From a candidate division WOR-1 bacterium RIFCSPHIGHO2_01_FULL_53_15 (GTDB lineage Bacteria; Margulisbacteria; WOR-1; O2-12-FULL-45-9; XYB2-FULL-48-7): 64,000 bases of DNA. Of the stretch, positions 3,195 through 52,729 are shown one piece after another; positions within the stretch are counted from its first letter, which is position 1; each line of letters starts with the position of its first letter. A program made the translations under genes and the position numbers. The notes under the pieces are model-generated. The model was not told the DNA's origin. It worked only from the letters and a program-made list of their open reading frames with translations, and searched no databases. The stretch is from positions 57,130 through 121,129 of the forward strand of contig METM01000021.1 in NCBI GenBank assembly GCA_001772335.1. The letters are read 5' to 3'.

Positions 3195-3199
3195 AAAAA

Positions 3200-31443: not shown

Positions 31444-33645
<2,202 letters not shown>

Positions 33646-34354: not shown

Positions 34355-34420
34355 GTAAAAGTTTCTCGACTGAGTTCGAGACAATTTCTCGACAAGCTCG
34401 AAATAAAGGGGGAAAAGAAA

Positions 34421-38200: not shown

Positions 38201-38257
38201 AGAATAGAAGACGAATTGAGAAAGTCGGCGAAGGTTCTGCAGGAAGCAAGCAAATAG
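35207..38257 (+). CDS. ppdK: pyruvate, phosphate dikinase (with ~65-aa N-terminal extension)
   Basis: 1016 aa with all three domains. ATP-grasp: LGGKGANLHSMTEAGISVPPGFTI and FSVRSGAKFSMPGMMDTILNLGLN. Swivel: GGATSHAALVGRQMGKPAVVG, with the His codon at 36812. PEP/pyruvate barrel: GLARTEHMFF, FSFGTNDL and GICGEHGGEP. Confidence 0.9.
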   Translation: MVYRVKARTVEGRRVAGLLSTDKFTTARLMEARAAERIGFGAGALSVAASLQVQRLETAAKRSFDVLPAYFFGDGRSEFRPDGGFKPDKDTLGGKGANLHSMTEAGISVPPGFTIPTTETNRYFVQDNGQLPDGLMDVVMQKVEMVEAATGNKFGDEDRPQLFSVRSGAKFSMPGMMDTILNLGLNNKTVLGLAKAANNERFAWDSYRRFIQMFSNVVLGVKKDVLEEILSEKKVSRGVKNDTELTVDDLKELVAEYKAKLKELGAEVPQDERRQLELAIEAVMKSSNNERAIVYKRDFNIPKEIVSAVNVQAMVFGNMGEDSATGVGFTRNPETGANEFYGEFLSNAQGEDVVAGVRTPLKLKRLAEVMPEAYAQLREVTTRLEKFFRNVQDFEFTIERGKLYMLQTRDGKRSAQAAVNIAVDLVEEGAITIEEALMMIEPEQMSHLLHPVFDPEEKKVAIKAGRLLGQGINASPGAAVGRIEFTAEAVVLATANDTKDKKTKVILVRKETNPDDISGMKAAQGILTATGGATSHAALVGRQMGKPAVVGFSAAEVDEKARTIRIGDRVFKEGDILSIDGTTGEVFAGEIMTLPSEIKRVVEGQLKAEDSPVYQRYMKVLGWAKEAAELEVWANADTAKDVKIADAFEAQGVGLARTEHMFFGDDRIPYMVAMILSETPAEKQPFLDKILAMQRSDFISLFEVMKGRPVTIRTIDPPLHEFLPKTDADIDKLLSSIHSVALVEQLERKLGISKEGVTRDELGEELWLALREKVKRRSAELHEANPMMGHRGTRLGITNPEITAMQARAIFEAAFAVARKGIPVKPKIMIPLVGFAAELKDQATIVREVHAELEKEHGPIAFQLGTMIEVPRGGLTADEIALLAEFFSFGTNDLHQYTLGFSRDDAGKFIAPYIDKGIIPADPTQKIDQPGTGKLMWLAVQLGRETRPDLEIGICGEHGGEPTSVEFCHALGLNYVSASPYRIPVARMAAAQAWIKERRIEDELRKSAKVLQEASK

Positions 38258-38286: not shown

Positions 38287-40965
38287 TCAGCGTTCAGGGA
38301 AGGGGACTCCGTTTCTTTCGCAAAGTTCTATTAGGCGTTGTACATCCCAGTTGGCGTAAAAATCGTAGAACTTGGTGTAAGGCTGGGCCAGCAGACCAAG
38401 AACTTCAGCGACATACCGATCGCTCTTCGGGGGAATGGCCTTTTTCACATCGGCCAGACTGATTCCGGTCAATTTTAATGTCATGAATTCGCGGACATTG
38501 CCGGTGTGCAGGAAAAGTGAATTGTCTTTCAGCCCCGTCTTTTCGATCTCCTTGCGCGCCCGATTAACCTCTCGCTCGCCGACCATCTCCAGCAAGCCGC
38601 GATATTTTTGGCACAAGACCCATTCATTAATGAGCTGAGCGATTTCCTTCGGGGAAAATACCCGCCAGAAAGCGACCGGCATTTCACCCGCCAGAAAGCG
38701 GCCGAGCATGAACGAGCCGGCGCTGTAGCCGGAGCGTTTTTCTTTTTCACAGCGGGCAAGGGCGATCTTATAAAATTTGAGCTTTTTATCCAAAGTTAAA
38801 TAATCAAAGATCACGAACTGGCTGTGGTGGTCCCCCAGGCCGGCGGCCAGGACGCCGTCAACATATGCCTCGGGATTGGCTTCGAACCAGGCGTTGGCCA
38901 ACGCGGCTTTTTTCTCCTCTTTTTTTTCGTTTCTCATCTCGACCAGGATCAGCCGGATCAGCGAGCCGAGATCAAGAATATTGGAGGCCTCTGACGCGCC
39001 GCCGGCCAGTTTTTGATATTTTCTGTAGGCGGCGGCGAGCGACTTAAAGAGCGATTCTTCGGCCGCTGTCAGATCAATTTTTTCACCCTCGAGATAGCGC
39101 ATGAAGCGGGCGGGGGTGAATTTGGCTTGCCCGAGCAGCAACACGGCGTGTTTGCTGGAGAGGGTGACCCAGTCACCCTCGTTGATCATTTGGCCGTCGG
39201 CTGACTTTAGCTTCTTGTTTCTGGCGTCCAGTGAAACGCCGCTCTCTTCAAGATTGAGGAGCGCTGGTATTCCGTGACCCCGCGAGGTTTGAACGACGTG
39301 GATCGCCGCCGGCGTCAGGCTGACGAGGCCGTCGACCCGGCTAAGAACAGGGGTGTCGGTCGGCGCAAATGTTTCTTTAGCCAGAATGACCTTTTCGCCA
39401 TTTTCTTTGGCGGTCACGGCGGCCGAGGCGGAGAAATAGACGCGTCCGCTGACGGCGCTCCTGGGCAGGACCGAAGCCCCTCGCGCGAAGAACGGCAGTT
39501 TGGCCAGCGATCCCGGATCGATCGCTTCCGACTCGACCTGCCTGATGTGATATGGTTTGATCAGTTCTCTGATCCGCGCCTCGGCGATCGTTCCCTGCCG
39601 GAACAACTCCATGACCGAGAGCAGGGTCCCGATACCGGTCAGTTCGGCCGGGTTGAGCTGGAGGAGGGCAAAGAGGTCGCTTTCGGCGGCGAACTCGACC
39701 GTGACCGGCGCCCGCAGGTATTTCTCAAGCGCGATGAGCTGCGGAGCGAAATGATAGACGGCGGGGAATTTTTCCCTGATCTCGGCCCGGCCAAGAAAAT
39801 CGGTCGTCTCGGGAGTGAGCACGCCTCCCGTCATGATCTCCTCGCCAAAGACGGAGCGGGCGCTCTCAAGCGACATGCCGGTCCCGGTCCGGGCGTGGCG
39901 GCTGAGCAGAACCCCGGCGTAGGAGCGCCGGCTGAGCGCGCTGCAGACCATCTTCTGGAAGATCATCGTCGGATACTGCTCCTCGCCGCGCATAAAGGTG
40001 CGCAGGAGGTCCAGGTTGTCGCCATAATCTTCGTAGGCCCTGGCCAGGAAGAAGACGACCTGATAATAAGGATCGGTGATGAGCCGCGGGTCCTTCCGCC
40101 TGATCATCGTCATCAGCTCATCAACCAGGGTCTGGTTGTCTTTGTGGCCGAGATCGGGCCTGACTTTGTGGCGGATCTTCTCGTATCCGGCCGGATCAAG
40201 CGCCCGCAGGATATTGCGGAGATTGTTCAGGATGATCCGGACGGCCGCTTCGTTGCCGTACCGCCGGGTCAGCGCGTCATAAGCGCTTTCGACGACGCCG
40301 GCGTTAAGATAAGTCGGCATGACGCCGGGGATGTAGGCCGGCATGGCGCAGCGCATCGCCGCCAGGAGAGGGTCTTCGGAGTGGCCGAATTGCTGGCCGG
40401 TCAGCTGTTCCAGGTTATACACCGCGTCGTGGATGTGCTTTTCGCGCTCTTTCAGGGTGAGCCGATATGCCCTGGCCGTCAGGAAACTAAAATCAGGAAC
40501 AGGATAGCCCTGCTTGATGAGGGCAAGGAGGACGGCGCCCTTGTTGCTGATCAGCTCTTCAGGATAGGCGGCGTCGGTCGTCGACGGGATGACGAATTCG
40601 TTCTCAGTGAAACGTACGCCGGAGAAATGAGGCGAGATCGCCGCCAGGGCGGTCTCTGCCTTGCTCCGGAGCTCTTTGTGCGCGCCAGTGTCGCCCTCTT
40701 TGGCTTTCAGTATCAGATCGAGATGGTCAAGCGCTCCCTGCGCTTGGTCGAATTCGGCGGAATCAAAATAGCGCAAAAAAGGGATGTCGGTGTCGCGGAC
40801 GCTGACGGCGGCCGGTCGGCCGGCATTATTAATGTAATCGACCTCGGCCGGCAGGTGGCCCGGCAGGGCGGCCGGTATCCGCCCGGCTGATCTCGTCGCT
40901 AATCTGTCATATAATGTACGGCGATTGACATAGCCGCCGCGCACCTGCAGGATCTGCCTGATCAT
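38287..40965 (-). CDS. PPDK-derived protein: ATP-grasp + phosphohistidine-swivel-like domains, with the PEP/pyruvate barrel replaced by an unrelated C-terminal region
   Basis: 892 aa. NKGAVLLALIKQGYPVPDF~GGKGANL..G.PVPPGF. PLLAAMRCAMPAYIPGVMPTYLNAGV~FSVRSGA..MPGMMDT.LNLGL. FGEEIMTGGVLTPET~GEDVVAGVRTP. SLTPAAIHVVQTSRGHGIPALL~GGATSHAALVGRQMGKPAVV, with the His codon at 39300-39298. None of the RTEHMF, GTNDL or CGE motifs is present. Confidence 0.65.
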   Translation of the reverse strand: MIRQILQVRGGYVNRRTLYDRLATRSAGRIPAALPGHLPAEVDYINNAGRPAAVSVRDTDIPFLRYFDSAEFDQAQGALDHLDLILKAKEGDTGAHKELRSKAETALAAISPHFSGVRFTENEFVIPSTTDAAYPEELISNKGAVLLALIKQGYPVPDFSFLTARAYRLTLKEREKHIHDAVYNLEQLTGQQFGHSEDPLLAAMRCAMPAYIPGVMPTYLNAGVVESAYDALTRRYGNEAAVRIILNNLRNILRALDPAGYEKIRHKVRPDLGHKDNQTLVDELMTMIRRKDPRLITDPYYQVVFFLARAYEDYGDNLDLLRTFMRGEEQYPTMIFQKMVCSALSRRSYAGVLLSRHARTGTGMSLESARSVFGEEIMTGGVLTPETTDFLGRAEIREKFPAVYHFAPQLIALEKYLRAPVTVEFAAESDLFALLQLNPAELTGIGTLLSVMELFRQGTIAEARIRELIKPYHIRQVESEAIDPGSLAKLPFFARGASVLPRSAVSGRVYFSASAAVTAKENGEKVILAKETFAPTDTPVLSRVDGLVSLTPAAIHVVQTSRGHGIPALLNLEESGVSLDARNKKLKSADGQMINEGDWVTLSSKHAVLLLGQAKFTPARFMRYLEGEKIDLTAAEESLFKSLAAAYRKYQKLAGGASEASNILDLGSLIRLILVEMRNEKKEEKKAALANAWFEANPEAYVDGVLAAGLGDHHSQFVIFDYLTLDKKLKFYKIALARCEKEKRSGYSAGSFMLGRFLAGEMPVAFWRVFSPKEIAQLINEWVLCQKYRGLLEMVGEREVNRARKEIEKTGLKDNSLFLHTGNVREFMTLKLTGISLADVKKAIPPKSDRYVAEVLGLLAQPYTKFYDFYANWDVQRLIELCERNGVPFPER

Positions 40966-41035: not shown

Positions 41036-41063
41036 TGAAATTTTGTTTTATGGCCGCAGATAT
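41036..41063 (+). promoter_or_regulatory. promoter-like motif copy 4: (T)TGAAAT-N16-AGATAT
   Basis: cttgaaat tttgttttatggccgc agatat, 15 nt before ATG 41079. Confidence 0.4.
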
Positions 41064-41078
41064 ATAGCTGGGAGAAAC

Positions 41079-43589
41079 ATGATAAAGATCATTGAGCAGT
41101 CCCGGCCATATTTTTCGCGGAGCGCCATGTTGCGCGGCCTCAGCGAGCGGCTGGCGGGGAGAAAGACACCGGCAGCGAGCTTCGCGTTCTCGGTGCGCTT
41201 TGAGGGCGGCCGGGCTGGCGCTGCTGAGGTTAACCTGCGGGCTTACGACGCGCTCTATTTCAGCAACCCATATTCTCCCGAGGCGGCCGAACACCTCGAC
41301 CTTATCCTGCAGGCGCGGCGGGGCAATAACCGGGCTCAAGCGGCCCTGCGCAAAATGGACCAAGAGGCGCTTGACCGGCTGGGCCAGGCGAAGCCGGAGA
41401 GATCCCGGCCGAATAGGTTTGACGAATTTCTGCTTTCTTCCGGCGCTCCTCACGAGAGCAGCCGTCAGGAGGCGGGGAACAAGGGTTATAACCTCCTGGC
41501 TCTCAGCGCGCAGGGCTTTCCGGTCCCGTCTTTTTGCATTATCAAGGCCGGCTACCGGAAGGCGTTTATTGGGATCAACTGGTCAAAAAGAAACGCCGTC
41601 AGGCAATCAGCCCTGACGAAGCTGGAAGCCCTGACCGGCAAAAAATATGATAATGACGCCAGGCCGCTGCTGTTTGCCATTCGCTCCTGCTTGCCGGAAA
41701 GCTTGCCCGGGATCTTGCCGACCTATCTGGCGGTCGGCGCGACGCAAAGATCGCTCCCCGGCCTGGTCCGGCTTTACGGCGAGCGGACTGCCTATGAGCT
41801 GCGCGCCAATCATTTAATGAGTTTGCTGCTGGCGGCCGAGCCCATCCGCTATCAGCCGTTGCTTGACGGGCTGGGACAGGAAAGGAGCGGCATTCGGGCG
41901 CTGGTTTTTCGGCTCGAAAGGCTGGCCGAAGCGGACGAGCGGAGCCGTTTTTTTACCCCGGAGAGATGCGTAAATTTCTTGATCGACAGGATCGAACTGT
42001 TCTGCGGCGATAATCAGGAGATGCTGCGCTCACTGATGGACGGGGCGCAAACCGAACCGGCGATCATCCTGCAAGAGATGGTCGTGGGGAAAATAGCCGT
42101 CAATTCTTTTGCCGGTGTTTTTAACACGCGGGAGCCGGGCGGCGGGGAAAGGCGCCAGCTGCAGGTCCGCCCCGACGCTTTTGGCGAGGAGATCATGACC
42201 GGCGGCGCCGAGGTTGAAGAGATAACTTTTGCCGAGAGAGCCGTACTGCGGAAAAGGCACAGGGAGATCTACGAGATCATTGACTGTCTGATCGCTCTGG
42301 AGGCGGCCGAGGGCGCGCCGCTGACTTTTGAACTGACTTCCGAGCGCGGCATGATTGCCGTACTCCAGATGGATAAGACCTCATTGTCCGGTGTCGCCGC
42401 GCTCAGGTCGGCGGTCCGTCTCCTGCGGGAGGGCAAGATCAAGCGGAGCGGCCTGCTGGAGATCGTCAAGCCGTTCCATTTGCGCCAGCTCTTCTCCGAC
42501 ACGGTCGAAGGCAAGGACTCGCTGCGGCCTTTTGCCGGCGGCCTGAGCATTTTACCGCGCGGCGAGGTCTGCGCCCGGGCGTATTTTTCCGCGGCCAGCG
42601 CCCTGGCGGCGCGTGAGCGGGGAGAGAAAGCGATCATGATCCGGGAGATTTTTCAGCCAGCGGATGTCGAGGCGATGGTCGAGATGAGCGGGCTGGTGAG
42701 CGTCTCCAGGTCGCCGGTGCACGTGGCGCAGATCGCCAGGAAATACGGTATCATTGCCCTGGTCGGGCTCTCTGACAGCGGAGCGGTCCCGGTGATCAGG
42801 GAAAATGAACTTGTTTTGCCGGATGGCCGCCGGATCGGCGAAGGCAACTTTGTTGTCATCTCGAGCGAAGAGCAGAGGTTGTACCTTGGCGAAGCGAAAA
42901 CCGTCCCTTCAGGCATGACGGAGAGCAAAGAGCTCTGGCCGGAGCTTGTTTACTTCAAGGATGAGCTTACGCGTTTTGCGGCGGCGGAGGTCGCTGACGG
43001 CCAGGCGCTGGACAATCTGGTTGATCTGCTCTTGATATTCGGCGAAACGGAAGCGGCGCGGCAGCTGGTTAACCGCTGGTTCAGGGAAAGGACGGAAAGT
43101 TTCCTGTCGTATTTTGCGGCCACTCGGATCGGCCGCCACCGCAGCCGCCTCCAGCTTTTCAGCCTGCTTGATTTTCCCTTCAACCAGGCGGAGCTGATCA
43201 GGCGGTTGTCCGGGCGGCCAAAGAATGCGGACGCCGAAGGCATGTTCATCATCGGCCGGGCGATGGTCTGGGTCGAAGAAAAGCTTGGTGAGTCCGCCCT
43301 CAACCGGCTCTGCAGCGGTTTTTCCGGCGAGTTGACCCGGGCTATTCGGGCTGAGATGAAGCGGGCCAGGGAATATCTCGGCGTCGCGCGCGCCGAAAAG
43401 CCGGCGACCGATGGCCGGGCTTTAGGTAATTCGATGGAAAGAATTCTTCGGGCGGTTTTGGAAAGAAAAGAATCGGGCCTTTCAGAGGAAGAGGCGGACC
43501 AGGTGATCTGGCTCGCCATGCAGGACATCGATCCATTGCACAAGCCGCACAAGACGATCGCGCGCGCTCTCGGCGAATTAAAAAAATAA
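41079..43589 (+). CDS. PPDK-derived protein, paralogue of 38287-40965 (ATP-grasp + swivel-like, no PEP/pyruvate barrel)
   Basis: ATG 41079 follows GGGAG. Contains NKGYNLLALSAQGFPVPSF, PLLFAIRSCLPESLPGILPTYLAVGA, FGEEIMTGGAEVEE and VSVSRSPVHVAQIARKYGIIALVG (His codon at 42720). Its N-terminal extension shares HLDLIL.A..G with its paralogue. The C-terminal ~290 aa is unrecognised. Confidence 0.65.
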   Translation: MIKIIEQSRPYFSRSAMLRGLSERLAGRKTPAASFAFSVRFEGGRAGAAEVNLRAYDALYFSNPYSPEAAEHLDLILQARRGNNRAQAALRKMDQEALDRLGQAKPERSRPNRFDEFLLSSGAPHESSRQEAGNKGYNLLALSAQGFPVPSFCIIKAGYRKAFIGINWSKRNAVRQSALTKLEALTGKKYDNDARPLLFAIRSCLPESLPGILPTYLAVGATQRSLPGLVRLYGERTAYELRANHLMSLLLAAEPIRYQPLLDGLGQERSGIRALVFRLERLAEADERSRFFTPERCVNFLIDRIELFCGDNQEMLRSLMDGAQTEPAIILQEMVVGKIAVNSFAGVFNTREPGGGERRQLQVRPDAFGEEIMTGGAEVEEITFAERAVLRKRHREIYEIIDCLIALEAAEGAPLTFELTSERGMIAVLQMDKTSLSGVAALRSAVRLLREGKIKRSGLLEIVKPFHLRQLFSDTVEGKDSLRPFAGGLSILPRGEVCARAYFSAASALAARERGEKAIMIREIFQPADVEAMVEMSGLVSVSRSPVHVAQIARKYGIIALVGLSDSGAVPVIRENELVLPDGRRIGEGNFVVISSEEQRLYLGEAKTVPSGMTESKELWPELVYFKDELTRFAAAEVADGQALDNLVDLLLIFGETEAARQLVNRWFRERTESFLSYFAATRIGRHRSRLQLFSLLDFPFNQAELIRRLSGRPKNADAEGMFIIGRAMVWVEEKLGESALNRLCSGFSGELTRAIRAEMKRAREYLGVARAEKPATDGRALGNSMERILRAVLERKESGLSEEEADQVIWLAMQDIDPLHKPHKTIARALGELKK

Positions 43590-43646: not shown

Positions 43647-46600
43647 ATGGGAGGAAAGACAATGATTAGAGTTGGAGAACGAGTTGACCGTCTGGCGACC
43701 AGGGTGATGACGCCTATCGTTTCTAAAATGGCGGGCAACCGCACGCTTGGCAATTTAGCAATGAGCGCCTCTTACCGGACAGCCCTGGCGGCTGATCTCG
43801 CTGGCTTCAGATCGTGGCAGATGGGGAGCGCCCTGCAAAGAGCGGCCGATCTGCAAGGGGTCGAAAACTATTCCGCCCTCATGAACCGTTATGCGCCTTT
43901 ATCATCGTCTTTCCTCCCGGGACCGCTGCAGCCTGCCAGCGGGTCGTACCTGGAAAGAGGCTGGGTCATAGCCAACCACAAATTAGTTTCTTTTCATGCC
44001 GCTTTTATTTCTTCGGTCTTGAGTTTGTCTGATGATGTCCAGGGGAAACTGGAAACCCTGAAATTCATGTTCCTCAGCACCGAAACGGTCGTTTCATCGG
44101 CCATGCTTTATCTTTCCTGGCACGCCGGCATTGCTATCCACGAAATGGGCCACTACCTGACCGCGGCTAAATTGACGGCGCTGAACAAGGCTTCTCAAGA
44201 AGCAGCTGATAGCATGAAAGACAAAGGGTTGTTGTCGAAAGTCGGCTGGTACTCGAAAATGTTCATGACCATCCCCTGGGGAAAATTTGAAGGCGTCAAA
44301 AATGACGGCGGCAATTATTCGCCGGATTCGCCTTACAACCTCGCGGTCTCCGCGGCGGGCCCGAGATGGAGTTCATACCTGGCGCTTGTCGCCCTGCCGG
44401 CCGCGACCGCGGCGATCTCGGCCGGGCTTATCTTTGGCAGTGAGACAGCCACATACATTGGCCGGTTCCTTCTGGGGCCTGGCGTGGTTGGCTTGCTCGA
44501 CCGGCTCCTGGCCGATCCCGGAAAATTGAAGGAATTTAACACCCGCGAGGAGCGGGCGAAGGTGGCGGCGGCAGAAGCAACGCGCCGAGCGGCCGAAATG
44601 GGCGACCTGGCCGAGGAACTAAGCAATATCAGGCAGACGCTGATAAATTCCCGCATGGTCACGATTACTCTGGCCGACGGATCGAAAGTTTCCGCCCCCT
44701 GGCAGTGGAGGAATTGCGCGATGGGCGGCCGCCACACCGAGAAGGAATATCCGGAGAGCAATATCAGCATGCAGGAAAGCATGTTCATCCCCCTCTCGGC
44801 CAAAACTTATGAGGATGCCCAGGAAATGACCCTAAAACTGCAAACCAGATTAAAAGAGATCATTGAAAAGTCGCCCGGCGGCAAGGTCATGGGGATCGGG
44901 TTGGAGGGCGGGATAGCGCCTTATCTTGAGAAAGAAGCGGGCGACAAGGTGCCGGAGCAAAGATTATGGAGGTTGATGAAGCAGGCGATCCTTGATTGCG
45001 GCTACATCCCGGGCAAAGATGTCGCCATCGCGCTTGACCCGGCCGCTTCGGAGCTGGAAAATGCCTATCGCAAACAGAACAAAATGCCCGATTCGGTCGG
45101 CAGGTATTATTTCTGGCGCGGCAAAGAGAATATCTCCATGTCGCGGGATGAAATGCTGGCGCTTTACAAAGAGGCGATCGAAAAAGACGGCGTGCCGATC
45201 ATTTCCATTGAAGACGGTTTTGGTGAAAGGGACCATGAGGGCTGGGGATTGTTGATGAAGGAAATGGGGGACCGGCTCTTTGTCATCGGCGACGACCTGG
45301 TGACGACCAATGACGCCATCATCGAAGAGGGAGCGCGCAAAGGCCTCATCAACGCGGTTCTGGTCAAACTCAACCAGATCGGCACGGTTTCCGAAGCGGT
45401 CCTGGCCATGCTGACCGGTATGGCTTACGGGGCGGAGATGATCATTTCTCACCGCTCCAAATCACCCAACGATCCGTTTGAAGCCGACGTCTCAACGGCC
45501 ATGAACGCAGTCGGCCAGAAAACCGGCGGCGGCGCCAACACGGAGCGTTTGCAAAAATACGGCCGGGTCGTCGAAATATTATCGTTTGCCGAAAACACCG
45601 GCCGGCCTTTGACCGGATCGGAAAAACAGGAATCCCTCAGATTGCTGCAGGAACTGGTCAATGAATTGACCGGTCGGACTGACGTCTCCGTTCTGCCTGA
45701 GATGGCCGATCGCGACATTTCTGAATTAATGTTCCGCTTGCTGGCGATCGAATCGGTGATCGGCACAGAAGAGCCGACTAACGCCGGCATCCCATCCGCC
45801 AAAGCCACGCTCTTATTGAGCCGCAGCGGGGGCGTCCGCTTTACCGGTTCAACTCCGCTCGGGACCTCGGCCGGTGAAACCGAAGCGATCCATCTGGTTG
45901 ACAGCATCATCGCGCCGGATGAGGTCACGGCTAAATATCCCGACCTGTTCAATGTCGTTCCCGAAGATAAGACGCTCCGCTTTAAGAAGGATGTCAGGCG
46001 GGGGTATGTTATCGCCAAAAATGACGCGGCTTTACTGGTCATGTTTGATCGGGCCAAACGCTATGACGGCAAGGGTTGTCTGACTGCCGCCGGCAACATT
46101 GAGACCATTTTGGCCAAAGCTTTCAAGGGCAAGCGGGTCTCCAGCCTGGGCAGCCTGGCCGAGATCGACGCCGAGCTTCTGCGGCTGGAGAAAGAACAAG
46201 CTGTGGCCAGGGGAATATTGGCTGCGGATGCGCCAGTTGACGATCAGATCCATGTCATGCAGCGGAAGGGAACGATCGGCATGAATGCCATCCTTTCCAT
46301 GTCGCTGGCTCTTGGCCGGGCATTAGCGGCCAGCCAGGGCAAGGAATTGTGGCAGTTGATCCGTGAAAGCGCAATGGATGTGATGGCCAAATTTGTAGCC
46401 GCCCATTCGGCCGACCCGGCCAAAAAAGATGTCCGGGCCCTGAAAGCGATGAATATTGACGATCTGCGAGTACTTTTCCGCGAAACTGCAAAGCGGTTAA
46501 TTGCCGAGGGCAAAGAAATCCATGGCGTCCTGCGCGAGCTCCTGCCCGTTTATGCCTTGCCGGAAGACGTCCGGGCGCGCGCCATTTTTACCGACCGGCT

Positions 46601-47180
46601 CGTCATTAGCCAGCTGGGCAAACTGAGCCAGCGGCGGATGGCAATTCTCAATAAGATTTTTGAGATCGAAGGTTCGCTCGTGTATAACGTTGAGTTGCGC
46701 AATCTGGGCGAAAAAGAGGTTCCCTATCTTCATGTCCGGCCCGGCTCAAAACAGGGCTTGGGTTCCGCCTATGTCTCACGGGCGGATGCGGGCTTTACTG
46801 CCGCCTCTACCCACAAGGCCGATACAATCATTCAATCCGGCATTTGGATCAGCAACCTGGGCCTTGATGGGCAAAGCGAAGCATTTGGCAATCGTCACTA
46901 CGTGGCCATTCCGCACAGAACGGGAGACAAAACCGGTGAGATCACCTTGTTATTTGGCCGCTTCAGGAAAAATGTGTCATTGGCGGAGCGGAAGGAATTG
47001 TTTGCCGATGAGATCGGGAGTGTTTTACGTTTTATCGGAGACGAGAAGATCGACATAACCGATCCGATCATGCGTGAAAAGATTGATGCGGCATTATTGC
47101 TGATCCCGCTCCACGAGTTTTTCGAGCGCGATAAAAAGGGCCTTTACGTTAAATATGTTAAGCCGGCGCTGACAAGCTAA
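43647..47180 (+). CDS. 1177-aa multidomain protein: hydrophobic HExxH N-terminal region + circularly permuted enolase + unknown C-terminal domain
   Basis: The N-terminal third has LSWHAGIAIHEMGHYLTA (HExxH in a hydrophobic stretch) and a later LLGPGVVGLLDRL, both reminiscent of M50. The enolase barrel comes first: AMGGRH (from 44715), MQESMF, GLEGGIAP, LDPAASE (D at 45036), SIEDG (E at 45210), IGDDL (45291), VKLNQIGT (K at 45366), SHRS (H at 45450) and QKTGGGANTER (K at 45519). The enolase N-domain follows: PLGTSAGETEAIHLVD (S at 45867), RYDGKG and GMNAILSMSLALGRA. The start may be ATG 43662, which follows GGAGG. Confidence 0.75.
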   Translation: MGGKTMIRVGERVDRLATRVMTPIVSKMAGNRTLGNLAMSASYRTALAADLAGFRSWQMGSALQRAADLQGVENYSALMNRYAPLSSSFLPGPLQPASGSYLERGWVIANHKLVSFHAAFISSVLSLSDDVQGKLETLKFMFLSTETVVSSAMLYLSWHAGIAIHEMGHYLTAAKLTALNKASQEAADSMKDKGLLSKVGWYSKMFMTIPWGKFEGVKNDGGNYSPDSPYNLAVSAAGPRWSSYLALVALPAATAAISAGLIFGSETATYIGRFLLGPGVVGLLDRLLADPGKLKEFNTREERAKVAAAEATRRAAEMGDLAEELSNIRQTLINSRMVTITLADGSKVSAPWQWRNCAMGGRHTEKEYPESNISMQESMFIPLSAKTYEDAQEMTLKLQTRLKEIIEKSPGGKVMGIGLEGGIAPYLEKEAGDKVPEQRLWRLMKQAILDCGYIPGKDVAIALDPAASELENAYRKQNKMPDSVGRYYFWRGKENISMSRDEMLALYKEAIEKDGVPIISIEDGFGERDHEGWGLLMKEMGDRLFVIGDDLVTTNDAIIEEGARKGLINAVLVKLNQIGTVSEAVLAMLTGMAYGAEMIISHRSKSPNDPFEADVSTAMNAVGQKTGGGANTERLQKYGRVVEILSFAENTGRPLTGSEKQESLRLLQELVNELTGRTDVSVLPEMADRDISELMFRLLAIESVIGTEEPTNAGIPSAKATLLLSRSGGVRFTGSTPLGTSAGETEAIHLVDSIIAPDEVTAKYPDLFNVVPEDKTLRFKKDVRRGYVIAKNDAALLVMFDRAKRYDGKGCLTAAGNIETILAKAFKGKRVSSLGSLAEIDAELLRLEKEQAVARGILAADAPVDDQIHVMQRKGTIGMNAILSMSLALGRALAASQGKELWQLIRESAMDVMAKFVAAHSADPAKKDVRALKAMNIDDLRVLFRETAKRLIAEGKEIHGVLRELLPVYALPEDVRARAIFTDRLVISQLGKLSQRRMAILNKIFEIEGSLVYNVELRNLGEKEVPYLHVRPGSKQGLGSAYVSRADAGFTAASTHKADTIIQSGIWISNLGLDGQSEAFGNRHYVAIPHRTGDKTGEITLLFGRFRKNVSLAERKELFADEIGSVLRFIGDEKIDITDPIMREKIDAALLLIPLHEFFERDKKGLYVKYVKPALTS

Positions 47181-47446: not shown

Positions 47447-48748
47447 ATGAGCATTAAGCTAAATCCGACCCATTTAAGGCATTTTCGACCGATAAACACC
47501 ATATCAATCGGTCGGGGAGCGACCGTTGCGTTAAAGGTTGATTTTAACGTGACGATAAAAGACGGGAAGATTCAGAACCCGGAGAAAATTAGAGCCGCTT
47601 TTAGGACTATTGACCATTTACTGGCGTCGGGCGCAAATATTGTAATTTATACTCATCTGGGCCAGCCCAAGAAGGGCTGTGAGGCAAAGACATCCCTGAA
47701 CCTCGTGGCTGATTTCTTGGCCGAAAAATACGGCAGGGACACGGTTATTAACGGGGAATCGTTAATTACGCCGGATGAAAACGGTTTTCTGCCGACGGAA
47801 CAATATATTAATAAGGCCGTGCGAGAAGCCGCGGTCGGCCTGGGCGGCAAGGCCAGGATATTGTTGATGCCGAACGTGAGATGGGCGGCTTATGAACAGG
47901 CCAAACCGACCGATCCCGGTCATCAAGCACTGGCTCAAGCCATGCTGGGACTCTCCGATGGCTTTGCAGTTTTTGACGCCGCGGCGGTCTGGAATAAGGA
48001 GCATGCTTCGATCACAACCATGCTCCGGCTGGCCGGCCTGAACAATATCGCCTGGGGTTTCCATGCTCATGAAATGGCTGAACTGCTGGTGAGAAGGTTT
48101 ACCGGCGACATACCGCGGCCGTATGTTCTGCACATTTCCGGCACAAAGGCGGATAAAATGGGTTATATCCTTGATTTTCTGGGTAACCCGCAAATTGACT
48201 CCATTTTAGTTTCGGGCAATATCGCCAACGGTTTGATGGAGGTTTTGGGCAGGTCTGTCGGCGCCGCGGCGGGAACCTACGGCGCGCCCGAGTTGGAAAA
48301 AGCGAGAAGAATCGTAAACCATCCGCGCTTCGGCGGTGCGGTTTCCCTGCCGGTTGATTTTATTATTGCCAGACCGGACGGGTCTGACCGCCGGTATTTG
48401 GCTCAAGGAGAAATTATCCCCGAAGGCTTCAGGCAGTTTGATATCGGCAGAGAGACCGCTTCTCTCTACGCGAAAATACTGGCTACGGCCGGCCTGGCTG
48501 TTAACTCCGGTGTCCCGGGCGCTTTTGACTTTGGCAACCCGCCGTTTGAAGAGGGGACAAAGGTTGTCCTGCCCGGCTTTGCAAGAGCCAAGCAGAGCAT
48601 TAATCTCGGCGGTGACGGCGGGATCGCCGCGGAAAAATACCTGACGCCGGAAGAGCTGGCGCGGACCGAAGTTTTAGTCGCGGGCGGTTCTTTCCTGCAC
48701 GCCATGGCGCACCAGACCTTCCCCGTGGCCGAAGTATTCTTAAATTAA
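47447..48748 (+). CDS. phosphoglycerate-kinase-fold protein, strongly divergent (PGK-like)
   Basis: 433 aa. ALKVDFNVTIKDGKIQNPEKIRAAFRTIDHLLASGANIVIYTHLGQPKKG~RVDFNVP..G.I..D.RI.A.LPTI..L...GA.V...SHLGRP. Also PNVRW~ENVRF, DAAAVWNKEHAS~DAFGTAHRAHAS, ISGTKADK~GGSKVSDK, NSGVPGAFDF~WNGPMGVFE, LGGDGG~GGGDT and VAGGSFLHAM~STGGGA.LE. Confidence 0.7.
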   Translation: MSIKLNPTHLRHFRPINTISIGRGATVALKVDFNVTIKDGKIQNPEKIRAAFRTIDHLLASGANIVIYTHLGQPKKGCEAKTSLNLVADFLAEKYGRDTVINGESLITPDENGFLPTEQYINKAVREAAVGLGGKARILLMPNVRWAAYEQAKPTDPGHQALAQAMLGLSDGFAVFDAAAVWNKEHASITTMLRLAGLNNIAWGFHAHEMAELLVRRFTGDIPRPYVLHISGTKADKMGYILDFLGNPQIDSILVSGNIANGLMEVLGRSVGAAAGTYGAPELEKARRIVNHPRFGGAVSLPVDFIIARPDGSDRRYLAQGEIIPEGFRQFDIGRETASLYAKILATAGLAVNSGVPGAFDFGNPPFEEGTKVVLPGFARAKQSINLGGDGGIAAEKYLTPEELARTEVLVAGGSFLHAMAHQTFPVAEVFLN

Positions 48749-48828: not shown

Positions 48829-49896
48829 ATGAGCGGAGTTGGAAAGGCAACGGTTAATTTGATGAGGTTGGGCAGGAACGGGCTGCACGCGCCGGGGCTA
48901 AGATCTGCGGTGATCAAGAATAATTTTAAGGCCGCGCTGGATAGATCGAGGGGCAACGCGACGACTTATCCGATCGATCATATCGAGGAGCACGGGCCGG
49001 CCCACTATTTTGTCCGGGGCATGCTGCGCAGTTTTGATCCGGGCGCGGTAGTCGAAGTCGCCCGCGAGGGGGGCGTTATGGCCATGGCGGTGTTGCCGGG
49101 GCTGGGCCAGCAGATCGGCCAGCTGACCAAAGGCGACATGCCGCTGATCTGGAAGCTTAACCGCGGTTCGGGCGCGAAGGTCAATGGCGATGCTACCACC
49201 GTCAGACTTTACAGTGACGTTGATAAAGCGATGAGCGTTGCCGTTGATAACGGCGCCAGGTTCTGGGGCGCGACTTTTTACAACGGCTCGGCCAATGTTC
49301 CCGACATGATCCAGCAGCTGGCTGAAATGGACGAAGCCGGCGCGCGCCACGGCCTGGGCGGCGTGGTTTGGAATTATCCGAGGGGGAGCGAGATTCCGAA
49401 AGGGCATGACGCGGATATCATGTATCAATTAGAGGGTTTTGAGCGGATAATCAACGCTTGTCCGGGCAGCCTGGTTCTGGTCAAGGAGAAGGTTTCCACC
49501 CTGCCCGGGACGGTCGCGGATTGGGAGGCGGGAGAGATAGAAAAGGTTGGCCGGGGCGAAGGCGCCTGGGGCAAACCCGGGACAAAAGGGGTTAAGGACG
49601 AGGTTGTCCGAACCTTTCTGGCCATGAATCGCGCCGTCCATATCGCCTTTATGGTCGAGCTTCAGCACAATCAGGGGATTGCCAGCTTGATGTCGGGCGG
49701 AGCGCCGCAGGAACGCGAAAAATTCGAAGCCGATCTAAATGACGGTATCGGCCCTGATCGGCATGTCGCGTTCATCGCCGGCCGTTCGACCACCAATGAA
49801 ATAAAGTACCAGGTTGACGAATATGATATTTCCGGCGCGGTCAGACACATGCACATGTTGAGGGACGCGGCGCCGAAAGTTGTCATAGAAGGATAA
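48829..49896 (+). CDS. class I aldolase-fold protein (FbaB/DhnA-like), divergent
   Basis: 355 aa with an AAGGAGG SD. TYPIDHIEEHGP~ILPVDQGVEHSA. GATFYNGSANVPDMIQQLAEMDEAGARHGLGGVVWNYPRG~[47 protein letters not shown]~ADIVKQK (Schiff-base Lys kept). SLMSGGAP and FIAGRS~ILGRK. The E. coli FbaB sequence was recalled from memory. Confidence 0.55.
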   Translation: MSGVGKATVNLMRLGRNGLHAPGLRSAVIKNNFKAALDRSRGNATTYPIDHIEEHGPAHYFVRGMLRSFDPGAVVEVAREGGVMAMAVLPGLGQQIGQLTKGDMPLIWKLNRGSGAKVNGDATTVRLYSDVDKAMSVAVDNGARFWGATFYNGSANVPDMIQQLAEMDEAGARHGLGGVVWNYPRGSEIPKGHDADIMYQLEGFERIINACPGSLVLVKEKVSTLPGTVADWEAGEIEKVGRGEGAWGKPGTKGVKDEVVRTFLAMNRAVHIAFMVELQHNQGIASLMSGGAPQEREKFEADLNDGIGPDRHVAFIAGRSTTNEIKYQVDEYDISGAVRHMHMLRDAAPKVVIEG

Positions 49897-49929
49897 GTTT
49901 GCGATAAGTCAGCAGGAGGGATTTTGGCC

Positions 49930-51420
49930 ATGGCGGGCATATTAGGAGCAAGGAGATTAAATATCGGTCCCGAGATCCGGGCTCGGGCCAGCGCGCTCAC
50001 GGCGCATAACAGGCAGGGGACAGTTCCCCTCCCGGCTTATATCGGACGACCCGGCATGGTCTTGATCTCCGATTCACACGGCGCAGTTGACACTTATCTT
50101 AAGCTTTACGAAGCGCTGCCTTCCACAGTAAGATTCGGCATTGATTTGGGCGACAAAGTTGACCGCGGACCAAGCCCCATTGAAATGAATTATGTCCTGC
50201 AAACTTTACGGGTGAGGCGCGTCCTCGGCAACCACGATGCCATGTGGGTCGCGGCCGGGCTGGGCGTGCCGGCGCAATCCATTGAATTGGTCCGTTGGTT
50301 AATGCGCTATAACGAAGTCGATTTTTTGACATCCGCGCTCGGGGTTGACTTGAAGCCATTGACGCAATTTGCCGGAAGCAGGTTTTCCGAAGGCGCGCAT
50401 CGTATCGATGTGAAATCGAAGCGGTTCAAGAGCGAAGAAGCTGCTGCGACATATTTAAAGATCATTGCTGAAGCAGGGGTTAGGTTCCCAGAACATCGCT
50501 CAACCGAACTTAGTCCTTCTGATCTAAGGATCAGGGAAGCCCTGTTCTTAAAAGGTTCAGCAGAGGCATTAGCGCCTTCTGAAAGGGACATTTTTAACAG
50601 GCTTACAGGCGATGCGCCGTTGAGCGGGGATGACCAATCCTATTTTTATCGTTTGATGGGAGGACTAAAAGTTCTTCAGCCCGAAGAACAAGCAGTTGTG
50701 AATCACTTTGCAAATGAATTCAGAAACAATTATGCGTTTTACCAATTTGTAAAATGGATGGCCGGGGAGGGAGATCTTTATCTTAATTTCCGGATCAGAC
50801 AGGGCTATTCTAGCGACATTCTGGCCTTGCACGCGACGGTTCCGCTCACCGCCGACGGTGAATTGGCTGAATTTGACGGCCGATACGGCAGGGAAGCGCT
50901 GCTGCATTTGAAAGACCGAATACAGCTGGGGCTCGAGGCCTGGAGGCAAATGTTGGAACACGATGATCAGGGACTGCTGGAAATGCATCAAAACGATATA
51001 AGTGTTTTAGGTTTGCTGCCCTGGGACAGGCGATCGCCTATTTACGCGAGGCAAATGCAGACTGCGGCCCGGGCCGTGCTCAATGAAAAGACCGGAACCT
51101 GGGAAGAGCCCAAAGAACCATTCTTTTCTGTTTTTGAGAAAGGGGAAGATCTTCAGGCGCTGGCAAACGCCCGCAGGAATATTGCCGCGTCATTTGGCTT
51201 TAGGAATCCCAATAATTTTGTCATTGTGCGCGGGCATGAGCCAAGCAAGGACGGCATGTTCCAGGTGTTCGCCGGTGGCACTGTCATTAACATAGATGGA
51301 GGCATGGCTGAAAAATACGGCGGCAAAGGCGGCGCACTTGTTATGGGGTCGGCCGGCGCGGCCTGGCTTGCCTACCCAAGCATGAATTACACAAGAGTTC
51401 CCTTGCCGGAATCGGTTTAA
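49930..51420 (+). CDS. metallophosphoesterase of the class 3 fructose-1,6-bisphosphatase type (FBPase-III-like), divergent and shorter
   Basis: ISDSHG, GDKVDRGPSP, LGNHDAMWVAAGLG...LMRYNEVDFL...GVDLKPLTQFA, VRGHEP and INIDGGMAEKYGGKGG follow the order of motifs in Bacillus-type Fbp. The start is ATG 49930, or TTG 49924 as in the ORF track. Confidence 0.55.
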   Translation: MAGILGARRLNIGPEIRARASALTAHNRQGTVPLPAYIGRPGMVLISDSHGAVDTYLKLYEALPSTVRFGIDLGDKVDRGPSPIEMNYVLQTLRVRRVLGNHDAMWVAAGLGVPAQSIELVRWLMRYNEVDFLTSALGVDLKPLTQFAGSRFSEGAHRIDVKSKRFKSEEAAATYLKIIAEAGVRFPEHRSTELSPSDLRIREALFLKGSAEALAPSERDIFNRLTGDAPLSGDDQSYFYRLMGGLKVLQPEEQAVVNHFANEFRNNYAFYQFVKWMAGEGDLYLNFRIRQGYSSDILALHATVPLTADGELAEFDGRYGREALLHLKDRIQLGLEAWRQMLEHDDQGLLEMHQNDISVLGLLPWDRRSPIYARQMQTAARAVLNEKTGTWEEPKEPFFSVFEKGEDLQALANARRNIAASFGFRNPNNFVIVRGHEPSKDGMFQVFAGGTVINIDGGMAEKYGGKGGALVMGSAGAAWLAYPSMNYTRVPLPESV

Positions 51421-51556: not shown

Positions 51557-52729
51557 GTGTTATTCCCGAGAGAATCGCTGGAAAAAATTAAAAGGGTCTT
51601 GCCGAGGGAAGAGTTTATCGTCTTAACGGGGGCAAGGCAAACAGGGAAAACTTCCCTGTTGATGCTGTTGAAGGATCATCTGGAAAAAACCGGCCAGACC
51701 GGCCATTATTTGAACCTGGAAAACGCGGAAACGCTTAAAGCCTTGAACGAGCACCCCCTTAATCTTTTTGAGCTGATCCCGGCCGGCAAAACAAAAATGA
51801 ACGTTTTTATCGATGAAATCCAGTATCTTGACAGCCCGACTAATTTTTTGAAACTGCTTTACGATGAAAACAGGGAGCGGGTGAAGATCATCGCCTCCGG
51901 CTCCTCGGCTTTTTACATTGATGAAAAATTTAAAGACAGCCTGGCCGGCCGCAAATTTCTGTTCGAGCTTTACCCATTGAATTTTCATGAATTCCTGGTT
52001 TTTAAGCAAGCCAGCGGATTACTTGGGCAAAAGCTTTCTGTTTATAGCAAAAAAAGAAAAATAAAGCTCTGGACGGAATATATAATTTACGGCGGATACC
52101 CAAAAATTGTTTTAACCGAAGAAGAAGAGCTTAAAAAAATCTTATTGGAGGAGATCGGATCCGCGTATGTAAAAAAAGATATTGTCGAGGCGGGCATAAA
52201 AAATACCGATAAGTATTTCGCTTTATTAAAAATACTGGCGGAACAAACCGGCTGTCTGGTCAATTCCCAGGAGCTGGCGAATACTCTTAATCTGGCGCAT
52301 AAGACCATTGAAGACTATTTGCATGTCATGAAAAAATCTTATCAAATAGCTTTCGTCCGGCCGTTTTATAAAAATCTGCGCAAGGAATTGACCAAGATGC
52401 CCAAGGCGTATTTTTATGATCTGGGATTGAGGAATTTCTTTATGAATGATTATTCAAAACCGGAGCGGCGCCCGGATAAGGGCGCCTATCTGGAAAATGT
52501 TGTTTTTCGCGAATTATTGGGGCGAACAACGGATCGCGATAATATCAAATATTGGCGGACGCAGGAAAAAAATGAGGTGGATTTTGTGGCCGGGAGTCAG
52601 GCCTTTGAGGTGAAATTTGATCTGAAGGGCCTCAAGCGGAAAAAATACAGCCAATTTCAAAAAGAATACCCGGCGATCGAGCTGACATTTTTGGCTTACG
52701 ATACATTGATGGAGTATTTTTACCCTTAA
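51557..52729 (+). CDS. AAA-family ATPase with DUF4143-type C-terminal domain
   Basis: 390 aa. Walker A GARQTGKTSLL and Walker B-like VFIDEIQY. The C-terminal region (KYWRTQEKNEVDFV) is typical of the ATP-binding protein / DUF4143 family. Confidence 0.7.
   Translation: MLFPRESLEKIKRVLPREEFIVLTGARQTGKTSLLMLLKDHLEKTGQTGHYLNLENAETLKALNEHPLNLFELIPAGKTKMNVFIDEIQYLDSPTNFLKLLYDENRERVKIIASGSSAFYIDEKFKDSLAGRKFLFELYPLNFHEFLVFKQASGLLGQKLSVYSKKRKIKLWTEYIIYGGYPKIVLTEEEELKKILLEEIGSAYVKKDIVEAGIKNTDKYFALLKILAEQTGCLVNSQELANTLNLAHKTIEDYLHVMKKSYQIAFVRPFYKNLRKELTKMPKAYFYDLGLRNFFMNDYSKPERRPDKGAYLENVVFRELLGRTTDRDNIKYWRTQEKNEVDFVAGSQAFEVKFDLKGLKRKKYSQFQKEYPAIELTFLAYDTLMEYFYP

Follow-up and report, generated by a model that had tools for sequence, protein, structure and literature searches.

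A bacterial enolase of reversed domain order joined to a hydrophobic HExxH domain

Introduction

What kind of protein begins with a hydrophobic region carrying an HExxH motif and continues with the two domains of enolase in the opposite of their usual order? Such a protein is encoded in a 64,000-nucleotide stretch of DNA (the window) from a candidate division WOR-1 bacterium. A first-pass annotation, made from the letters alone, had described it as a circularly permuted enolase behind a module resembling a membrane metalloprotease and knew of no report of such a fusion; a full-text literature search likewise found no description of a permuted enolase fused to an HExxH membrane domain. What is new here is a large bacterial family of reverse-order enolases that is repeatedly linked to a partner resembling pyruvate, phosphate dikinase (PPDK).

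Results and Discussion

Order and conservation of the enolase domains

The reading frame is divided as follows.

43647..47180, + strand: whole permuted-enolase ORF, 1177 aa; probable start ATG 43662
43647..43943, + strand: variable N-terminal extension (aa 1-99)
43944..44546, + strand: conserved hydrophobic HExxH domain, orphan fold (aa 100-300)
44139..44153, + strand: HEMGH (H165, E166, H169; aa 165-169) in the helix of aa 145-175
44499..44516, + strand: D285...D290 (LLDRLLAD), candidate third metal ligand
44547..44681, + strand: charged connecting helices, then a short beta strand into the barrel (aa 301-345)
44682..45596, + strand: enolase TIM barrel (aa 346-650)
45597..45746, + strand: conserved helical linker from barrel C-terminus to cap N-terminus (aa 651-700)
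45747..46367, + strand: complete enolase N-terminal capping domain, after the barrel (aa 701-907)
45855..45887, + strand: PLGTSAGETEA catalytic loop (aa 737-747)
45903..46055, + strand: family-specific insertion of ~48 aa between catalytic loop and RYDGKG (aa 753-803)
46368..46556, + strand: family-wide helical tail, where the ~900-aa forms end (aa 908-970)
46557..47177, + strand: lineage-specific alpha/beta extension (aa 971-1177)

The Pfam profile Enolase_C (PF00113) matches residues 355-644 (E 9e-51), and Enolase_N (PF03952) follows on the same polypeptide at residues 790-905, with 37.5 bits against a gathering score of 35 and 45.3 bits for the isolated cap segment. In relatives the Enolase_N match after the barrel spans profile positions 1-131 (E 2.4e-14 in P0133, 2.2e-21 in P0180). 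BLASTP aligns residues 701-907 with residues 4-136 of E. coli enolase, beta strands 1-3 included, and sets the catalytic loop PLGTSAGETEA against PSGASTGSREA. Ser741 in this loop is the equivalent of the ligand of the second Mg and is conserved in all 31 family cap segments. Both the assignment of the late segment to the enolase N-domain and the domain order given in the first-pass annotation are thus borne out.

In the query, as in every relative examined, the barrel precedes the cap, the opposite of the canonical cap-first order. This fixed order of barrel, linker and complete cap makes it an enolase that is circularly permuted at the domain boundary, with no residue required for enolase chemistry lost. 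The enolase equivalog model TIGR01060 (NCBIfam, cut-off 300 bits) matches the native order in two stretches with 218 bits (218.4) and an in-silico re-ordered cap plus barrel in one collinear stretch, profile positions 52-406, with 233 bits (233.4); in both orders the permuted enolase scores below the cut-off. A short stretch before the barrel, KVSAPWQWRNCAMGG, had been suggested to be the eroded remnant of an N-domain. That reading is not supported: in canonical enolase the stretch has its counterpart in the first strand of the barrel, residues 701-740 already supply all three strands of the cap, and Pfam gives no Enolase_N signal in the stretch preceding the barrel. It is possible that the permuted enolase arose by tandem duplication.

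The barrel keeps H363, Q376/E377, E420, D464, E522, D549, K574, H602-R603-S604 and K625. The motif coordinates reported earlier are all correct (D464 at 45036, E522 at 45210, D549 at 45291, K574 at 45366, H602 of HRS at 45450, K625 at 45519), and these residues, like E420 and E377, line up with the positions that bind Mg or act as acid and base in E. coli enolase and in the window's canonical enzyme. Among 40 diverse family barrels the equivalent of K625 is found in 37 and the H, Q/E, E, D, E, D, K and HRS positions in 38-39. Foldseek aligns the barrel with solved enolase structures across ~301 residues at an rmsd of 2.7-3.0 A.

Canonical enolase runs from cap to barrel, whereas the permuted form runs from barrel through a linker of ~50 aa to the cap; it carries in addition the 48-aa insertion, the fused N-terminal HExxH domain and a C-terminal tail. 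The two forms share both domains, the Mg ligands, the acid/base pair, the phosphate-binding HRS and the catalytic-loop serine, at 32-35% identity across the barrel, and the permuted form falls in the enolase family proper, outside the MR/MLE and other subgroups of the superfamily. After HRS it has SKSPNDPFEA where the canonical enzyme has SGETED. The insertion beside the catalytic loop could alter lid behaviour or specificity; in the predicted model the first strand of the cap and the catalytic loop have low pLDDT. The last ~250 residues had been left as unrecognised, which holds for residues 971-1177, found only in Saganbacteria/Margulisbacteria-type members (pLDDT 80-93) and without a match among protein families or in the PDB, but not for residues 908-970, which form the tail common to the family.

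Homologues of the same order, which the first-pass annotation had proposed to look for, are abundant. The protein has 1097 cluster matches, and more than 1000 clusters show the same domain order; across residues ~100-970 the query shares 61-65% identity with the ~900-aa forms. A query with the N-domain gave 127 clusters at 50% identity. The permuted enolase occurs in 113 GTDB species genomes, mostly of anaerobic Phycisphaerae/Sedimentisphaerales, WOR-1/Saganbacteria or Margulisbacteria. All share a fixed core in which the four-helix HExxH domain is followed by the enolase TIM barrel, the helical linker and the complete cap, in this order. Among representatives of at least 500 aa the barrel follows the N-domain in all except P0183 (916 aa), where the N-domain match extends to residue 901, too close to the C-terminus for a barrel to follow. 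Two contigs have the N-domain as an ORF of its own immediately upstream of the enolase gene. Giant multi-unit proteins of the family reach 6041 aa.

The hydrophobic HExxH domain

The first 99 residues are largely of low confidence (pLDDT <50 over aa 1-12, 49-60 and 81-108) and can be aligned in homologues of the Saganbacteria/Margulisbacteria type; in the ~900-aa forms from Planctomycetes the alignment begins only at about residue 90-100. The domain that follows, modelled with a pLDDT of 93.4, is built around four long hydrophobic helices (aa 104-126, 145-175, 232-263 and 266-289); a beta hairpin (aa 217-226) and some amphipathic helices separate the second from the third. HEMGH at residues 165-169 lies within a predicted helix, so that its placement in a hydrophobic segment with further hydrophobic helices was well judged. 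The family-mean best-19 Kyte-Doolittle hydropathy of the four helices is 1.4-2.2, two of them being only borderline hydrophobic. In an alignment of 25 diverse family members H165, E166, H169 and D290 are invariant and D285 is nearly so; D285 and D290 on helix 4 are at the same end as HExxH on helix 2. A four-helix topology would place this metal site where helices 2 and 4 reach the cytoplasm.

The earlier suggestion of an M50/site-2-protease-like N-terminus is sound as to the motif in its hydrophobic helix; kinship beyond the motif level is not established by HMM, profile-profile or fold comparisons. Peptidase_M50 (PF02163) reaches 12.5 bits against a gathering score of 27.2. An hhalign comparison with a verified alignment of bona fide M50 proteins gave 10% probability over 56 columns that cover the HExxH helix only, and a Foldseek search of the PDB with the domain model had no S2P in the top 50 (best E 0.24), helical membrane bundles being a weak spot of Foldseek. 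In a profile search of the PDB RseP was the sole match (E 2.2), with both motifs collinear. Here D290 (ADPG) and D285 (LLD), at the end of the helix of aa 266-289, align weakly to LDGG of RseP, and the N and P of NxxPxxxLDG are absent. Like RseP, SpoIVFB and MjS2P, the domain has HExGH inside a hydrophobic helix, a conserved Asp close to where a later such helix ends and, between them, a Gly-Pro helix plus loop or hairpin, and its core is fused to a cytoplasmic domain, as SpoIVFB is to its CBS domain. Unlike the M50 proteases, it has neither the NxxPxxxLDG motif nor a PDZ or CBS domain, its Pfam score is less than half of the threshold and the similarity is limited to the HExxH helix.

These data bear on a reading in which a diverged S2P core would form a metabolite-gated intramembrane metalloprotease, with the cytoplasmic enolase module acting as a sensor or regulator that responds to 2-PG or PEP. 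CBS and PDZ domains regulate SpoIVFB and RseP, respectively, in a comparable manner. The invariant HExxH, together with an invariant Asp close to where another hydrophobic helix ends, would fit such a protease, as would the order HExxH, IPxG..G(V)K, AAGP, LD/ADPG, which resembles that of M50. Besides the RseP match, Peptidase_M50 is the only recurrent Pfam match, with weak hits around the HExxH helix in 15 of the 25 diverse members (best E 1.4e-5), and fragments carry the label PF02163 or RseP in some source pipelines. The low Pfam score and the hhalign and Foldseek results argue against this, and a pure sensor would not need the acid/base residues, while K574, E420 and E377 are kept in 38-39 of 40 members. 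Moreover, nothing that might serve as substrate, an anti-sigma factor for example, is conserved nearby. We regard a gated protease as unlikely.

Neighbouring genes and the PPDK-like proteins

The permuted-enolase gene lies within a glycolysis/gluconeogenesis cluster, and its neighbours include other strongly divergent glycolytic paralogues. Three genes of the window are relevant here.

32224..33627, - strand: the genome's canonical enolase (663 bits with TIGR01060, cut-off 300)
38287..40965, - strand: PPDK-like paralogue 2, 892 aa, divergently oriented, 32% identity to paralogue 1
41043..43589, + strand: PPDK-like paralogue 1, 848 aa, with an ATP-grasp and a mobile His domain

The canonical enolase used as comparator in the first-pass annotation is present, with its span corrected from 32224-33563 to 32224-33627 on the minus strand. 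A canonical enolase coexists with the permuted form in all three cases visible, which are the window, L002 (5.6 kb downstream) and L027 (8 bp downstream). Since the same genome has a canonical enolase, the permuted form would be an additional paralogue and not the housekeeping enzyme.

A gap of 57 bp separates PPDK-like paralogue 1 from the permuted enolase downstream. Both PPDK-like proteins share with PPDK (TIGR01828) an ATP-grasp nucleotide domain and a mobile domain in which a His aligns to the catalytic His; these two domains show 25% identity to the true PPDK of the window. The proteins score 125-138 bits with TIGR01828, below the cut-off of 843, compared with 1173 for the true PPDK. Unlike PPDK, they lack the PEP/pyruvate TIM barrel (no PEP-utilizers_C by Pfam in either), have an unrecognised C-terminal region of ~250 aa and are fused to the permuted-enolase unit in some lineages. 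A PPDK-like gene is adjacent in four of four related Saganbacteria/Margulisbacteria loci (L003, L004, L005 and L071), and the module is fused to the permuted-enolase unit in P0133, P0170, P0180 and the L084 gene. The enolase gene of L083 is overlapped at its end by a separate PPDK_N/PEP-utilizers ORF, perhaps a continuation that has been frameshifted. The fusion is found in only 3 of 37 long cluster representatives, and no PPDK-like gene occurs within 10 kb of the ~900-aa Planctomycete forms, so the partnership is not universal. The PPDK-like protein is a candidate functional partner of the permuted enolase. Neither this link nor the coexistence with canonical enolase figured in the first-pass annotation.

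PPDK and enolase catalyze consecutive steps around PEP. The two modules could constitute a new PEP phosphotransfer enzyme, in which the PPDK-derived domains, having lost their own PEP/pyruvate barrel, use the permuted enolase barrel or an adjacent unrecognised domain as PEP site; the net reaction would then link 2-PG/PEP directly to nucleotide phosphorylation. The absence of PEP-utilizers_C, the retained candidate catalytic His in both paralogues, the end of the fused polypeptides in P0133 and the L084 gene ~40 aa past the His domain, and the recurrence of the association by adjacency as well as by fusion would be in agreement with this. However, nothing has changed in the enolase active site, which the cap loops normally close, and we know of no precedent for phosphoryl transfer from enolase-bound PEP. 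Channelling is a simpler account of fused consecutive pathway enzymes, and most family members have no PPDK-like partner nearby. A phosphotransfer enzyme of this kind is therefore quite doubtful.

Proposed function

On balance, the protein is probably a membrane-anchored, active enolase that works with the PPDK-derived partner. The permuted protein would be catalytically competent, interconverting 2-phosphoglycerate and PEP, and the N-terminal domain would hold it at the cytoplasmic face of the membrane. The conserved serine loop lends indirect support to a late cap that would close over the barrel and so complete the active site. The ATP-grasp/phospho-histidine protein may catalyze or couple the neighbouring PEP step, so that PEP would be made and consumed inside one membrane-associated assembly. 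The HExxH site could be a structural metal site, a protease or a sensor. The TIGR01060 scores of 218-233 bits against 300 speak against an active enolase.

Enolase is also membrane-associated in RNA degradosomes, via RNase E or RNase Y. A position at the cytoplasmic membrane, here predicted, is common to both systems, but the degradosome recruits a canonical soluble enolase non-covalently, whereas the permuted enolase shares one polypeptide with its membrane domain and has no linked RNase.

More far-reaching, and in our view rather unlikely, is that HExxH membrane domain, permuted enolase and PPDK-derived module form a previously unknown membrane-bound PEP machine. If so, this would be either an intramembrane metalloprotease gated by glycolytic flux through a live enolase or a phosphotransfer enzyme in which the enolase barrel replaces the PEP-binding barrel of the dikinase, of which the giant multi-unit proteins would represent elaborated versions.

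Alternatively, the protein could be an enolase-derived enzyme of changed substrate that dehydrates another 2-phospho- or 2-hydroxy-acid. The score under the equivalog cut-off would fit such an enzyme, as would the 48-aa insertion beside the catalytic loop, the SKSPNDPFEA segment, the coexisting canonical enolase and the location among divergent glycolytic paralogues. Against it, the equivalents of the phosphate- and carboxylate-binding residues (R603, S604, K625, Q376 and H363) and both Mg sites are conserved, and the protein belongs to the enolase family proper. We consider a changed substrate very unlikely, and active enolase the preferred reading.

Reading frame and start codon

An artefact, in which chimeric assembly, a frameshift or a merged gene call joined separate genes, might be suspected in a window derived from a metagenome-assembled genome and in view of the two contigs with a separate HExxH ORF, but it is almost certainly excluded by an uninterrupted frame at 43647-47180, by the repetition of order and boundaries in more than 1000 clusters at 44-65% identity from NCBI, JGI, ENA and Logan assemblies, complete chromosomes included, and by the conservation of linker and junction residues across the family.

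The single ORF on the plus strand is as first described, with no stop codon splitting it. Its length of 1177 aa applies to the frame from the first ATG; the protein itself is likely to start at ATG 43662 and to have 1172 aa. GGAGG sits 7 nt upstream of this ATG, and the 1172-aa form is also the call made in other assemblies. The NCBI annotation starts at residue 39 (OGB89693.1, 1139 aa).

Domain order of the permuted enolase

The permuted enolase is encoded by a single stop-free open reading frame of 1177 amino acids (43647-47180, forward strand). Downstream of its first ATG, from which residues are numbered here, lie a GGAGG motif and a second ATG at 43662. Because of these elements, and because the same protein cluster is called at 1172 residues in other assemblies, translation likely starts at 43662, which leaves the downstream features unaffected; the NCBI entry (OGB89693.1) has 1139 residues. 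The exact protein was found in candidate division WOR-1 (Saganbacteria) RIFCSPHIGHO2_01_FULL_53_15. The nucleotide positions listed for catalytic residues in the first-pass annotation all fall on the residues named there (D464, E522, D549, K574, H602, K625). A promoter and terminator scan of 40.8-47.6 kb gave nothing informative.

Pfam places Enolase_C at residues 355-644 (E 9e-51) and, behind it, Enolase_N at residues 790-905, with 37.5 bits against a gathering score of 35 and 45.3 bits when the segment is scanned in isolation. The NCBIfam model TIGR01060 matches the native protein in two separate stretches (218 bits) and matches an in silico rearrangement to the canonical order, cap followed by barrel, in one collinear stretch (profile positions 52-406, 233 bits). 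In BLASTP comparison with E. coli enolase, residues 347-644 align to the barrel and residues 701-907 align separately to residues 4-136, the whole cap, including beta strands 1-3 and the catalytic loop (PLGTSAGETEA versus PSGASTGSREA in E. coli); the same alignment reveals an insertion of about 48 residues in the cap (residues 753-803). The order is plainer in two relatives than in the query: Enolase_N profile positions 4-131 are located behind the barrel in P0133, as are positions 1-97 in P0180 (E 2.2e-21). All these comparisons agree on the barrel-then-cap order on one polypeptide that the first-pass annotation had proposed, and at sequence level the late segment is a significant N-domain match.

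The same annotation had read the stretch just before the barrel, KVSAPWQWRNCAMGG, as an eroded N-domain remnant. This was not borne out: KVSAPWQWRNCAMGG is the first barrel strand, no Enolase_N signal occurs there or upstream of it, and the counterpart of the segment in canonical enolase is the linker together with the first strand of the barrel.

The full-length AlphaFold model has a mean pLDDT of 72 and a pTM of 0.65. Its barrel superposes on about 50 solved enolases, with barrel-only alignments of about 301 residues at 2.7-3.0 Å. Foldseek with the full-length model returned barrel matches only, because a sequential alignment is blind to a permuted cap. The parts of the protein outside the HExxH domain, barrel and cap are as follows.

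Remaining segments of the 1177-residue protein
1-99: N-terminal extension, variable and largely modelled with low confidence
651-700: helical linker from barrel end to cap start, conserved
908-970: helical tail, conserved
971-1177: alpha/beta extension, confidently modelled, restricted to proteins of the Saganbacteria/Margulisbacteria type

The alpha/beta extension has no match in Pfam or NCBIfam, and in the PDB only a marginal one to an unrelated reductase (E 0.004).

The enolase superfamily is a textbook model of enzyme evolution, and to our knowledge its members as a rule have the cap before the barrel. We know of no earlier case of a circular permutant that is natural, widespread and intact in its active site, as this one would be. 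A full-text literature search found no permuted enolase and no enolase-protease fusion, and in the Saganbacteria genome paper the word enolase appears in a pathway legend only. Enolase as such is a known kind of enzyme; we found no earlier description of the permuted arrangement, of the orphan, putatively metal-binding membrane domain or of the link to a dikinase. The protein should surprise specialists in enzyme evolution, is tractable by experiment, and lends itself readily to studying what constraints the order of domains places on folding, dimerisation and lid dynamics.

The HExxH domain, a probable membrane domain

Residues from about 100 to 300 are conserved across the family, and the HExxH region alone, searched against 1.84 billion cluster representatives, matched 127 clusters. 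The barrel directly follows this domain in all representatives of at least 500 residues except P0183 (916 residues), where the N-domain match stops at residue 901 and leaves no space for a barrel. In two contigs the HExxH domain is an open reading frame of its own directly upstream of the enolase gene.

An isolated-domain model built with 25 diverse sequences reached a pLDDT of 93.4 and a pTM of 0.89. The model has four long helices (residues 104-126, 145-175, 232-263 and 266-289), with amphipathic helices and a beta hairpin between the second and third. Family-mean hydropathy in the best window is 1.5, 1.4, 2.2 and 1.7 for helices 1-4, which suggests a four-pass membrane domain in which the two catalytic-type helices would be polar. 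Invariant residues are H165, E166, H169, L179, G212, G216, N231, A236, P239, R273 and D290; D285 is almost invariant.

The hydrophobic N-terminal region had been described as resembling M50 or site-2 proteases. Its conserved hydrophobic HExxH domain is real, but the likeness to M50 is at motif level only. With Pfam, Peptidase_M50 reaches 12.5 bits where 27.2 are required; no other family recurs among the matches, and this one does so in 15 of 25 members (best E 1.4e-5). The sole match in a PDB profile search was an RseP orthologue (E 2.2) whose HExxH and LDG regions line up in the same order; in hhalign, a small verified M50 family (from eight related loci, Pfam E 2.3e-13) gave 10% probability over the HExxH helix only. 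Foldseek with the isolated-domain model did not find S2P and returned nothing below E 0.24. A profile search of 5.8 billion proteins retrieved fragments of the same family only and no wider relatives. We therefore regard the domain as an orphan that may be a very distant M50 relative, and do not class it as M50. The invariant HExxH residues would fit a flux-gated intramembrane protease, a reading that we consider unlikely in view of these comparisons.

A bona fide M50 gene of about 235 residues (HEAAH...PLPPLDGS; Pfam E 2.3e-13) does lie 4-9 kb upstream of the permuted enolase, on the opposite strand, in eight related loci (L020, L021, L030, L041, L042, L050, L055 and L062). Its recurrence is probably mere synteny among related Sedimentisphaerales. 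This gene supplied the M50 family for the hhalign comparison.

Distribution of the family

The query matches 1097 protein clusters. Saganbacteria and Margulisbacteria forms of about 1130-1200 residues align with it end to end, and hundreds of forms of about 870-950 residues, where named mostly from Phycisphaerae/Sedimentisphaerales, align to residues from about 100 to 970 with 61-65% identity. Among GTDB species, each scanned through a single genome, 113 carried the family, including complete chromosomes, Fermentibacteria and bins labelled Verrucomicrobiota.

Some proteins (1666-1888 residues) carry two tandem units. P0003, P0006, P0008 and P0009, and locus L002 (10001-15001), have two complete or nearly complete HExxH-barrel-cap units; by analogy with canonical enolase, the unit may work as a dimer. 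The 6041-residue P0139 has the unit at residues 1780-2561 and, spaced along the rest of the chain, 18 copies of ERG(A/T)(V/I), mostly GERGAV, resembling the LERGWV that is invariant at the start of the family's N-domain. These repeats could mark cleavage sites of a polyprotein or linkers, or stem from faulty gene calling; that they are a signal of this sort in general was rejected, as the repeat is confined to P0139 and absent from other relatives. At the C-terminal end of P0138 (2278 residues), residues 2213-2277 give a marginal match to cupin-type glucose-6-phosphate isomerase (20.1 bits, cut-off 20.7), a hint that further sugar-phosphate enzymes are possibly fused to the unit.

Candidate PPDK-like partners and the canonical enolase

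The region of about 21-54 kb in the window is a central-carbon locus.

Genes of the central-carbon locus
21366-30652: PFOR-like genes
32224-33627, reverse: canonical enolase
34337-35182: TIM-like
35207-38257: true PPDK
38287-40965, reverse: PPDK-like paralogue 2
41043-43589, forward: PPDK-like paralogue 1
43647-47180, forward: permuted enolase
47447-48748: PGK-like
48829-49896: class I aldolase-like
49924-51420: FBPase-like
52730-54367: iPGM

The two divergently oriented PPDK-like paralogues share 32% identity with one another and 25% with the true PPDK across their ATP-grasp and mobile His domains. Both keep the candidate catalytic His, lack the PEP-utilizers_C barrel, end in about 250 unrecognised residues, and score 125-138 bits against the TIGR01828 cut-off of 843. 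A homologue search with paralogue 1 turned up almost no relatives, with five matches.

Each of the four related Saganbacteria/Margulisbacteria loci has a PPDK-like gene as the immediate neighbour of the permuted enolase. Other lineages provide fusions, with a module of PPDK_N and mobile domain joined to the unit (P0133, P0170, P0180 and the gene of locus L084), and in L083 a separate PPDK_N/PEP-utilizers reading frame overlaps the end of the enolase gene. Enolase and PPDK catalyze consecutive steps around PEP; this, together with adjacency and fusion, argues for functional coupling of the permuted enolase and the PPDK-like proteins. The same fusions, with dikinase modules lacking the PEP barrel, could be taken to mean a new phosphotransfer enzyme in which the enolase barrel serves as the PEP site. 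We find this rather improbable; no PPDK-like gene occurs within 10 kb of the Planctomycete copies of about 900 residues.

In 37 of 82 related loci the Planctomycete permuted enolase is followed instead by a small protein of about 160 residues with a TM helix and a coiled coil (for example L006, 7735-8232), which weakly matches DivIC/FtsB (E 0.012). An eno-ftsB gene pair is common in other bacteria, and this arrangement echoes it.

A canonical enolase coexists in all three places examined: in the window, in L002 (5.6 kb away) and in the Phycisphaerae locus L027, where a canonical enolase gene (3814-5145), its product 60% identical to that of the window, begins 8 bp downstream of the permuted gene (999-3806) and is read in the same direction. 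This makes the permuted form a paralogue beside the ordinary enolase. Recent import of the window's canonical enolase was rejected, its GC (0.562) and GC3 (0.729) looking native. It is flanked by an AbiEi/AbiEii toxin-antitoxin pair (30811-32227) and a 23S rRNA intervening-sequence protein (33706-34065), whose genes, unlike it, are low in GC (0.45-0.46).

Possible role

The barrel catalytic and metal set (H159, Q167, E168, E209, D246, E290, D317, K342, H370-R371-S372 and K393 in E. coli numbering) is kept in 37-39 of 40 diverse family barrels, and the catalytic-loop Ser in all 31 family caps. The most likely reading, which we hold with moderate confidence, is an active enolase that the HExxH domain would tether to the cytoplasmic face of the membrane. 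In Saganbacteria it would act jointly with the PPDK-derived proteins, so that PEP may be made and used locally. An enolase-derived enzyme with an altered substrate would suit an extra paralogue, and seems to us quite improbable given the retained residues. An artefact can practically be dismissed, chimeric assembly being ruled out by independent recurrence of the same architecture.

That an enolase is fused to a conserved domain with a presumed metal site and membrane location suggests that PEP metabolism is organised in space, or regulated, in ways not yet recognised, as does the repeated tie to a dikinase that lost its PEP barrel. The hosts (Phycisphaerae, Saganbacteria and Margulisbacteria) are abundant anaerobes. 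Current labels are 'hypothetical protein' (NCBI) or 'Enolase' (automatic, UniRef/JGI), and enolases may consequently be miscounted in metabolic reconstructions.

Other genes of the central-carbon locus

The window's canonical enolase, PPDK and iPGM easily pass the NCBIfam equivalog cut-offs. The TIM-like, PGK-like and class I aldolase-like genes score far below theirs (41/293, 137/883 and 66/277), and the FBPase-like gene has no equivalog match; the four together possibly form a 'shadow' set of diverged paralogues of glycolytic genes. The PFOR-like stretch is a run of five pyruvate:ferredoxin-oxidoreductase-type genes, of which the one at 27875-30652 (925 residues) matches TPP_enzyme_C no more than weakly. 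A low-GC AAA_14/DUF4143 ATPase gene (51557-52729, GC 0.42) separates the FBPase-like gene from iPGM and has probably entered the glycolytic cluster as a mobile insertion.
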